From Octopus vulgaris (Eukaryota), in contig OX597821.1 in assembly GCA_951406725.2 (NCBI GenBank), positions 88,226,001 to 88,290,000 on the forward strand: a DNA stretch of 64,000 nucleotides, given 5' to 3'. This document shows, one piece after another, positions 7,128 to 8,440 of the stretch. The notes under the pieces were generated by a model that saw only the letters and a list, made by a program, of their open reading frames with translations, was not told the origin of the DNA and ran no database searches. Position 1 is the first letter of the stretch, and each line of letters starts with the position of its first letter. Made by a program: the position numbers and the translations under genes.

Positions 7128-7455
7128 GAGGCATATACGATGAGCTTTCCCACAGTTTCAACCAAATTCTCCCGAAAGATATTCGTGAATATGGACTATG
7201 GAAGACAGTTGCTCAAGGTGCCACCCAAAAGCACGTCATTTCAAAGTGAAGTCTTAGCCAGAAAGTCATTTCTGCGTCAACTGAAAGATATTAAACAACG
7301 GCGGAGAAACTCCAAATATATCTAAACTAATGTAGAAAACAAGGAGACAAAAAAAATTCGAAACGATGACATAAAAATGCACGAGATGGAGACAATGACA
7401 AAATAATTACATTATTTACATTTGACGGATATTTGTCCGCATCTTGTCTGTTGTT

Positions 7456-7500
7456 AACACAACGCTTCGGCTGATATACTCTCCAACCTTCATCAGGTGT
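7456..7500 (-). ncRNA. Minimal type-I hammerhead ribozyme motif (left arm)
   Basis: ACAC-CTGATGA-A-GGTTG-gagagtatat-CAGCC-GAAG-CG-TT-GTGT, with one core change (GAAA>GAAG). Confidence 0.65.
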
Positions 7501-7568
7501 CTTGGGGAAATTTCGAACCTGGGTTCTCATTCCTAAGGTATTTTTCGATTTATTATTATTATTATCGA

Positions 7569-7639
<71 letters not shown>

Positions 7640-7643
7640 CCGC

Positions 7644-7713
7644 GGGCATATGGTGTAGTGGTTAAGAGTGTGGGCTACTAACCCCAAGATTCCGAGTTCG
7701 ATTCCAGGCAGTG

Positions 7714-7716
<3 letters not shown>
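7644..7716 (+). pseudogene. tRNA-derived Pol III head (tRNA-like, not a functional tRNA)
   Basis: Acceptor-like stem GGGCAT/GTGCCC, A-box TGGTGTAGTGG (7651-7661), anticodon-like loop CTACTAA and B-box GTTCGATTC (7696-7704). Confidence 0.7.
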
Positions 7717-7759
<43 letters not shown>

Positions 7760-7789
7760 CATCGAAAAATACCTCGAAATTTCCCCAAG

Positions 7790-7833
7790 ACACCTGATGT
7801 AGGCTGGAGGGTATATCAGCCGAAATGCTGTGT
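7790..7833 (+). ncRNA. Minimal type-I hammerhead ribozyme motif (right arm)
   Basis: ACAC-CTGATGT-A-GGCTG-gagggtatat-CAGCC-GAAA-TG-CT-GTGT. Its mutations differ from those in the left arm, so the combined consensus is canonical. Confidence 0.6.
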
Positions 7834-7939
7834 TAACAACAAACAAGATGAGGACAAATATCCGTCAAAAGTAAATAATATACATAATTTCTCGTCTCTT
7901 AAATATAGAACTGGACAAAATAATTGTTTCAAATTTTAC

Positions 7940-8440
7940 ATCCACCCAACTGACTGGTATTATATTTTATCGACCACAAGAAGATGCTATTTTCTAAAGC
8001 AGGCAAACGGCCAAAAATTTCAGTGAGTAAATTAGTCAATTAAAACGCTCCCAGGTAAATGCAAAATCGACAGAGTTTGTATTTGATCGCAGAACGTAAA
8101 CGACCAGAACCAACACTACAAAACGTTTGGTTTGTCATTCTACCGAGTCAGCTGATTCATCCAATGCACTAATGAATAAATAAATATATAAATAAACAAC
8201 TAAACAGAGAAAAATAAATAAATAGATAAATAAATTGCTGGAAGCAAAAGAACTAAAATTTTGAGGGACGAGGCTAATCGATTACATCGACACTCACTGC
8301 TCGACTAGTAGATATTTCGTTAACCCCGAAAGGATGAAATGCAAAGTAGACTTCGGTGAAATTTGAACGTAAAGAATATATAGCCGAAAGAATGCAAAGC
8401 CGAAAGAAATGCAACTAAACATTTCGTGCGGCGTGGTAAG
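7940..8440 (-). mobile_element. Two degenerate SINE family B copies
   Basis: Both retain CTGGTA..TATTTTATCGACC and CCCCGAAAGGATGAAA motifs. Confidence 0.6.

Follow-up and report, generated by a model that had tools for sequence, protein, structure and literature searches.

The insert under study is a decayed solo pseudo-LTR of an abundant Penelope-like element, which integrated together with a partial inverted copy. What is unusual in this family is that, of the copies reaching the head of the repeat, the majority start at a promoter motif of the tRNA type, and the element works partly like a SINE. Such a hotspot of 5′ ends likely marks the start of the element's RNA, which would point to RNA polymerase III (Pol III). 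In the reading that we favor, the head of the repeat contains a tRNA-derived internal promoter of the Pol III type, at which the RNA of the parent element probably starts.

Within the window (the whole 64-kb stretch of DNA that was analyzed), a 12-bp direct repeat (GACAAAATAATT) bounds an insert of 505 bp (Table 1). Its two inverted arms (7397–7516 and 7774–7893) are 88% complementary and are accompanied by (ATT)n and (AAT)n spacers. Each arm holds a minimal type-I hammerhead, and the core changes differ between the two: A15.1>G in the left arm, on the minus strand, and A9>U, C15.2>U, and U16.1>C in the right arm. The right arm also has a 20-nt deletion at 7774/7775, by which the family's first ATG is lost, and extends 31–32 nt past the inverted part (one base is ambiguous). 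The direct repeat, the differently mutated hammerheads, the complementary spacers, and a 31-nt overhang had all been described in a first-pass annotation made from the sequence alone, and they hold up in the sequence and the arm alignment. The 5′ start of this copy falls within the family's 5′-end hotspot. Alignment within the 64-kb window found no further copies of the unit, and among reading frames of at least 130 aa we saw only repeat-derived ones. The flanks at 7140–7260 and 7945–7990 look like degenerate copies of short, abundant repeats of other kinds.

Table 1. Features of the insertion, with positions counted from the first letter of the window.
Feature	Positions	Strand	Basis
Left target-site duplication, 12 bp	7397–7408	.	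Direct repeat
Inverted pseudo-LTR arm without tail (element's ORF start including ATG)	7409–7549	–	96% identity to family majority line
Minimal type-I hammerhead, A15.1>G, predicted inactive	7457–7500	–	Sequence, alignment
Inverted (AAT)n spacer and small internal duplication; inversion junction 7639/7640	7550–7639	–	Sequence
tRNA-like head; tRNA position 1 at ~7644	7640–7716	+	Similarity to genome tRNAs, hotspot position
A box, one CpG-type change in window copy	7651–7661	+	Matrix from genome's own tRNAs
B box GTTCGATTCC	7696–7705	+	Sequence, matrix from genome's own tRNAs
(AAT)n spacer of pseudo-LTR	7717–7759	+	Sequence, ORF-anchored loci
Direct arm (ORF start); 20-nt deletion takes first ATG; terminates at first 3′-end site	7760–7881	+	Alignment
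Minimal type-I hammerhead, three core changes, predicted inactive	7790–7833	+	Sequence, alignment
Penelope-type tail between the two 3′-end sites; ORF sequence in full-length copies	7882–7913	+	Hammerhead-anchored insertions
Right target-site duplication	7914–7925	.	Direct repeat

The head-(AAT)n-hammerhead-tail unit is almost certainly the pseudo-LTR of a protein-coding element of the Penelope/Poseidon type. A search with the peptide of an endonuclease-like ORF end gave 4832 candidates, of which 150 were scored and 30 loci taken (one of them, L031, repeats L028). At these endonuclease-anchored loci, the head lies downstream of the RT-endonuclease stop in 28 of 30 cases by BLAST, with partial heads recognizable by eye in the other two, and the arm follows the stop in 27 of 30. 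Of 30 loci from an N-terminal peptide search, 24 have arm and tail continuing into the ORF N-terminus. Aligning 31 stretches yielded a majority line whose reading frame, beginning at an ATG within the arm, stays open over 835 codons. Since head and arm follow the stop, arm and tail enter the ORF start, and the majority ORF opens in the arm, we read the unit as a pseudo-LTR, in the order head-(AAT)n-ATG-hammerhead-tail-rest of the ORF (RT, then endonuclease)-stop-27-nt link-same repeat again. Tandem and near-complete copies are also present (L213 and L214). When loci other than the window copy were anchored by the head instead, arm sequence lay downstream within 1.5 kb in 27 of 29, the remaining two broke off within the AAT spacer, and the end of an endonuclease-like ORF stood directly upstream in four. 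Thus, the Penelope-like RT/endonuclease partner that the first-pass annotation had postulated bears the same repeat, and head, arm, and tail co-occur as it had anticipated.

Longer stretches around the loci contain a broken RT-endonuclease ORF (RVT_1 match, E = 5.5e-10). In the majority-line ORF we located DKG at 296, YVDD at 536, YSIPC at 728, and the residues C732, C734, H752, and H769; by comparison with motifs known for the family, we take YSIPC and the CCHH-type residues to be GIY-YIG-type endonuclease motifs. A Pfam search of the element ORF gave no GIY-YIG match, hence the endonuclease assignment rests on these family motifs and on homologues. The features expected of the Penelope/Poseidon group are present: a single ORF for RT plus, at its C-terminal end, an endonuclease of the GIY-YIG type with CCHH, pseudo-LTRs flanking the ORF with tandem and inverted insertions, and a one-sided tail of 30–40 nt with a minimal hammerhead in the repeat. 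The RT-endonuclease linker lacks paired cysteines, which counts against Neptune and Nematis as these are described in PMC8557442. In a comparison without named Poseidon, Neptune, or Nematis references, the element protein was 40% identical to one unnamed anole protein. The family comprises thousands of copies, with at least 4726 exact mid-head matches; copies diverge by about 5–6% outside CpG sites, and none of those inspected is intact.

Some side features of the loci were noted. The 27-nt link after the stop (for example in L039 and L058) terminates in a degenerate reverse complement of the first bases of the head, as if an old fold-back junction had become fixed in the element. At L030:1640–2033, the 3′ end of another retroelement ORF lies inside the (AAT)n spacer; it resembles a restriction-like endonuclease domain, putatively of the Dong/R4 type. 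In L002, L007, L011, and L023, the spacer is likewise split, by repeats of other kinds.

Insertion structure was studied in a set of 88 insertions chosen solely by an intact hammerhead (90 loci from the first 100 of 1713 matches, with two duplicates removed). An inverted arm was present in 54 of the 88, with variable junctions, and 48 of these 54 carried the tail on exactly one end. The 3′ ends lie at two sites about 34 nt apart (42 and 43 of the 88 insertions). Target duplications of at least 7 bp (7–15 bp) accompanied 29 of 51 inverted insertions, compared to 1.3% of shuffled pairs, in line with the variable duplications that had been expected. Head-to-tail arm repeats were found in only a few of the 90 loci. 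The fold-back is an integration by-product. Its shape is not special, since inverted 5′ parts with a one-sided tail of 30–40 bp are known for Penelope-like elements (PMC8557442), and minimal hammerheads on opposite strands, 100–700 bp apart, have been described in metazoan ones (PMC4209133). A functional fold-back hairpin RNA was also considered and ruled out, as junctions are variable and both hammerhead cores in the window are mutated. We also noted that the first 3′-end site lies within a predicted stem-loop with a 9-bp closing helix (majority line; 7842–7900 in the window), which recalls the stem-loop at the priming sites of anole PAc.

The inferred intact hammerhead with its 10-nt loop has 1713 exact matches in the genome and its reversed control has none (exact motif counts covered 2.8 Gb in 227 contigs), so the canonical consensus proposed earlier is borne out. 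A scan with Rfam hammerhead models, which had also been proposed, gave no match in the window, in 20 copies, in L058, or in L289. The hammerhead would cut at ORF nt 70, while 3′ ends cluster near nt 122 and 156; self-cleavage therefore does not define the ends, and the processing step of the first-pass annotation falls. In P0003, a relative with 56% identity, the N-terminus keeps an in-frame reading of the hammerhead core (PD.G...PKRCV), which makes an overlap of ribozyme and ORF likely in this relative as well.

The same annotation had seen in the insert a SINE head joined to a borrowed Penelope 3′ module. We compared 50 short with 67 ORF-linked heads and arms and found no diagnostic column outside CpG sites (207 tests), and the divergence of the two groups was equal (0.052 vs 0.057, P = 0.45). 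Together with the presence of the whole unit on both sides of the ORF in ORF-bearing copies, this makes both modules parts of the autonomous element's pseudo-LTR. The view that the insert is a Pol III SINE in its own right, Penelope-derived at its 3′ end, amplified from separate master copies and processed by self-cleavage, is largely refuted and in our judgment highly improbable; the ends, too, do not match the ribozyme cut. Short head-to-tail copies do outnumber ORF-linked ones, and their heads have undergone less CpG decay (44 of 171 sites in L093–L182, vs 88 of 212 in the ORF-linked loci), which may point to a wave that was later or in part distinct. Nevertheless, the head of an independent non-autonomous SINE family would be absent from its partner, whereas here it sits in the ORF-bearing element, and no free-standing parent SINE of the head was found among the 29 other head-anchored loci. 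Nor does the insert resemble a retrozyme, in which non-coding monomers with intact type-I hammerheads are arranged head-to-tail; the window copy is inverted and its cores are mutated. Overall, the Penelope-like partner, the varying target duplications, the canonical consensus, and the clustering of 5′ ends (see below) survive from the earlier interpretation, but the hybrid SINE, the fold-back as a feature in its own right, and the self-cleaved ends do not.

Next, we considered the head itself. It has A and B boxes, as a tRNA-derived 5′ head of a SINE does, and on a matrix trained on 15 of the genome's own tRNAs it scored 23.5 for the box pair, compared to 16.7 for the best of 300 shuffles and 23–39 for true tRNAs; the window copy's own A box is under the matrix threshold. 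The head is also colinear with the genome's own tRNAs (30 tRNA loci of seven amino-acid classes were compared), best with tRNA-Arg(TCG) at a z of about 7 against rough shuffles. By contrast, no cloverleaf passing a tRNA model was found, as a tRNA gene would have. The family acceptor stem has one mismatch and the T stem pairs at three of five positions; the head folds no better than shuffles (z = +0.52), Rfam tRNA models had no match in the window, 20 copies, L058, or L289, and ARAGORN found no tRNA in the window. (At a lowered threshold, ARAGORN gave scattered calls on control loci, and these were left out of the analysis.) As judged from its sequence, the head is tRNA-like by its boxes and its colinear similarity to genome tRNAs, without a tRNA fold. 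The tRNA-like loop described earlier thus stands as far as boxes and similarity go, but its acceptor stem is private to the window copy: the perfect 6-bp stem needs a C at 7714, and the family reads GTGACC.

Among hammerhead-anchored insertions that reach the head, 36 of 59 stop within 13 nt at its start, around tRNA position 1 (binomial P = 1.5 × 10–21). The rest of the 88 end short of the head (29), in its 72-nt body (13), in the link (3), or run into the ORF (7). Two of seven direct heads preceding an ORF start also begin at the hotspot (L196 and L198). Clustering at the tRNA-like head is what a Pol III start predicts, and on this point the first-pass annotation was right. Exact genome-wide counts with motifs of 22 fixed bases, which differ in mutability, were 4726 for mid-head and 2733 for the head start, dropping to 780 for the link motif 32 nt upstream of that start; truncation within the head is hence substantial as well, as the first two counts indicate. 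We consider it likely that the promoter sets the RNA start at the head.

The head might instead act as a processing signal, with RNase P creating the RNA 5′ end by a cut at tRNA position 1 in transcripts that are tandem or arise by read-through. Several copies start exactly at this position (L098, L124, L131, L169, and L196). The mismatched acceptor stem, the weakly paired T stem, and the lack of a tRNA-model match noted above nevertheless speak against an RNase P substrate, many 5′ ends lie upstream of position 1 by 2–8 nt, and heads linked to the ORF occur often; we regard such processing as very unlikely.

A palindrome, TGCCC-AC-GGGCA, coincides exactly with the 5′-end peak. By eye, about 16 of the 36 hotspot ends are fold-backs centered on it, hence snap-back priming can account for part of the peak. 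Alternatively, then, the head could be a remnant of a tRNA or SINE that was captured and is carried along in the pseudo-LTR of an element with an ordinary Pol II promoter, and the peak could reflect cDNA snap-back or stalling at the palindrome. The (AAT)n after the tRNA-like head, which resembles a SINE with its tail, fits a captured relic. However, about 20 of the 36 ends, again by eye, have no symmetric fold-back (five are plain uninverted copies), several begin at or after the center of the palindrome, and no free-standing parent SINE of a captured head was found, with an arm downstream of 27 of the 29 other heads. RNA reads from three raw runs of a related organism, chosen by species label, also bear on this alternative: they show fold-back loose ends at the palindrome and no pile-up of starts at the head. 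The reads are about equal on both strands, their depth tracks genomic copy abundance, and it falls about 100-fold at the end of the tail, a pattern that suggests passive transcription from numerous dead copies and is uninformative on the promoter. A relic head would also leave unaccounted for both the T4 deficit and the layout of a related element described below. Collectively, we hold a passenger head to be possible but somewhat unlikely, and prefer the internal promoter.

A run of four T is the usual Pol III terminator (as described in PMC3141230). The sense strand of the majority line (2633 nt, 835 codons) is free of T runs of length four or above, where 2.9–4.7 are expected (P = 0.003–0.027 over four shuffles). 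Single family copies had 22 such runs vs 92 expected, and a second set, which shares some loci with the first, had 22 vs 112. By contrast, 79 foreign Penelope-like ORFs had 311 vs 232 expected. Four of 36 long control ORFs were likewise without T4, and G4 runs are also absent from the majority line, although only about one is expected (P = 0.27). The T4 deficit is one ancestral observation. Control ORFs were taken from metagenome and MAG contigs because searches of the genome for other, head-less Penelope families returned the same family in 30 of 30 loci, and a second search listed largely the same places; viral contigs gave no match. The Penelope-like ORFs of L368–L372 come from contigs assigned to bacterial MAGs, where they probably represent eukaryotic contamination.

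One foreign element shares the layout of the family. Metagenome contig L289 (2756–3030) carries an intact tandem Penelope-like element with a unit of 2791 nt, whose protein is 38–39% identical to the family protein. Its stop is followed, in this order, by an A/B box pair that finishes close to CCA, by AATAATAAT, and by a minimal hammerhead whose stem II differs in sequence, an arrangement like that of our family. The box pair scores 21.6 (reached by 0 of 300 shuffles), and no other of the 32 foreign 3′ regions has one in this place. L289 is also the only one of 28 JGI rows to group with the family (local support 97), on trees from FastTree or from an IQ-TREE search not run to completion. Two T4 runs lie in the 200 nt that follow its hammerhead. 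L369, from the same clade and with its repeat absent from the contig, is T4-rich (19 vs 14.6), hence T4 loss is not clade-wide.

We propose the following cycle. TFIIIC and Pol III would start the RNA at the head, where the tRNA-derived A and B boxes would serve as the internal promoter. The element protein would nick AT-rich DNA and prime within the RNA at the two 3′ sites, as in anole PAc, for which priming inside the RNA at two internal sites and AT-rich nicking are described (PMC11167929). Priming in the first repeat would copy only from head to tail and run off at the RNA 5′ end, which would yield SINE-like solo copies such as that of the window; priming in the second repeat would yield ORF-bearing, mostly truncated copies, and a second priming or a template switch would add the inverted arm. 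With an internal promoter, a full-length copy would carry its own promoter, much as D. virilis Penelope keeps an internal promoter within its repeat (PMC2377424).

A further step would be a Penelope-like lineage that is transcribed end to end by Pol III, in which T4 has been purged from the 2.5-kb ORF and whose own 5′ end gives off solo repeats of SINE-like form. We hold this extension to be unlikely. An uncapped 2.9-kb Pol III RNA would be hard to translate, which also counts against the favored reading. Moreover, Kojima reasoned that autonomous partners must use Pol II, since Pol III is weakly processive (PMC10886601).

According to PMC2377424, regeneration of the pseudo-LTR without tandem formation has no obvious route. 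With a tRNA-type internal promoter located at the 5′ end that we measured, the question of how a Penelope-like element keeps its promoter through each cycle would be answered for this family, and a direct path would lead from an autonomous element to passengers of the SINE type. Should Pol III transcribe the element end to end, an autonomous element and its SINE would be united in one sequence, and the coding RNA would be one of the rare Pol III transcripts that encode a protein. The short forms of the family are easily mis-annotated as SINEs.

In the literature that we covered, with Repbase/Dfam, subscription papers, and supplements outside its scope, we found no ORF-bearing Penelope-like element described with a tRNA-type promoter; those sources may already list the family itself. 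The closest precedents for a terminal repeat with a promoter of the Pol III type, namely Sm-alpha (PMC6765202) and Cassandra, Helenus, and Ajax (PMC10886601), do not code for protein. Its closest counterparts are Penelope/Poseidon-clade elements. With anole PAc and D. virilis Penelope it shares a single ORF for RT and a C-terminal endonuclease, a pseudo-LTR, two 3′-end sites bounding a 30–40-nt tail in the ORF, inverted 5′ parts, and the position of the internal promoter in the repeat (PMC11167929, PMC2377424). With PAc it further shares a hammerhead that overlaps the ORF start and a tail between two internal priming sites (PMC11167929). By contrast, the promoter described for D. virilis Penelope is TATA-less and of the Inr/DPE type (PMC2377424), whereas our family has tRNA-type A/B boxes and (AAT)n in that place and a sense strand without T4.

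The hammerheads do not differ in kind from the minimal motifs described in metazoan Penelope-like elements: the CUGAUGA/GAAA core, the extra base before stem II, the palindromic CG that replaces helix III, and the opposite-strand pairs are shared, although both window motifs are mutated (PMC4209133). Sm-alpha and Sj-alpha as well as animal non-LTR retrozymes likewise are short non-coding hammerhead units; Sm-alpha has a Pol III promoter (PMC6765202), and a link to Penelope repeats has been proposed for the retrozymes (10.64898/2026.07.22.740005). Those units are non-coding and tandem (PMC6765202, 10.64898/2026.07.22.740005), whereas the unit in our family is the terminal repeat of a coding element and is mostly single or inverted. 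Lastly, Cassandra, Helenus, and Ajax (TRIMp3) also carry a small-RNA-derived, Pol III-type promoter within the terminal repeat, but they are described as LTR elements that are non-autonomous and no longer than about 1.3 kb (PMC10886601), whereas the family reported here is Penelope-like and bears an ORF.
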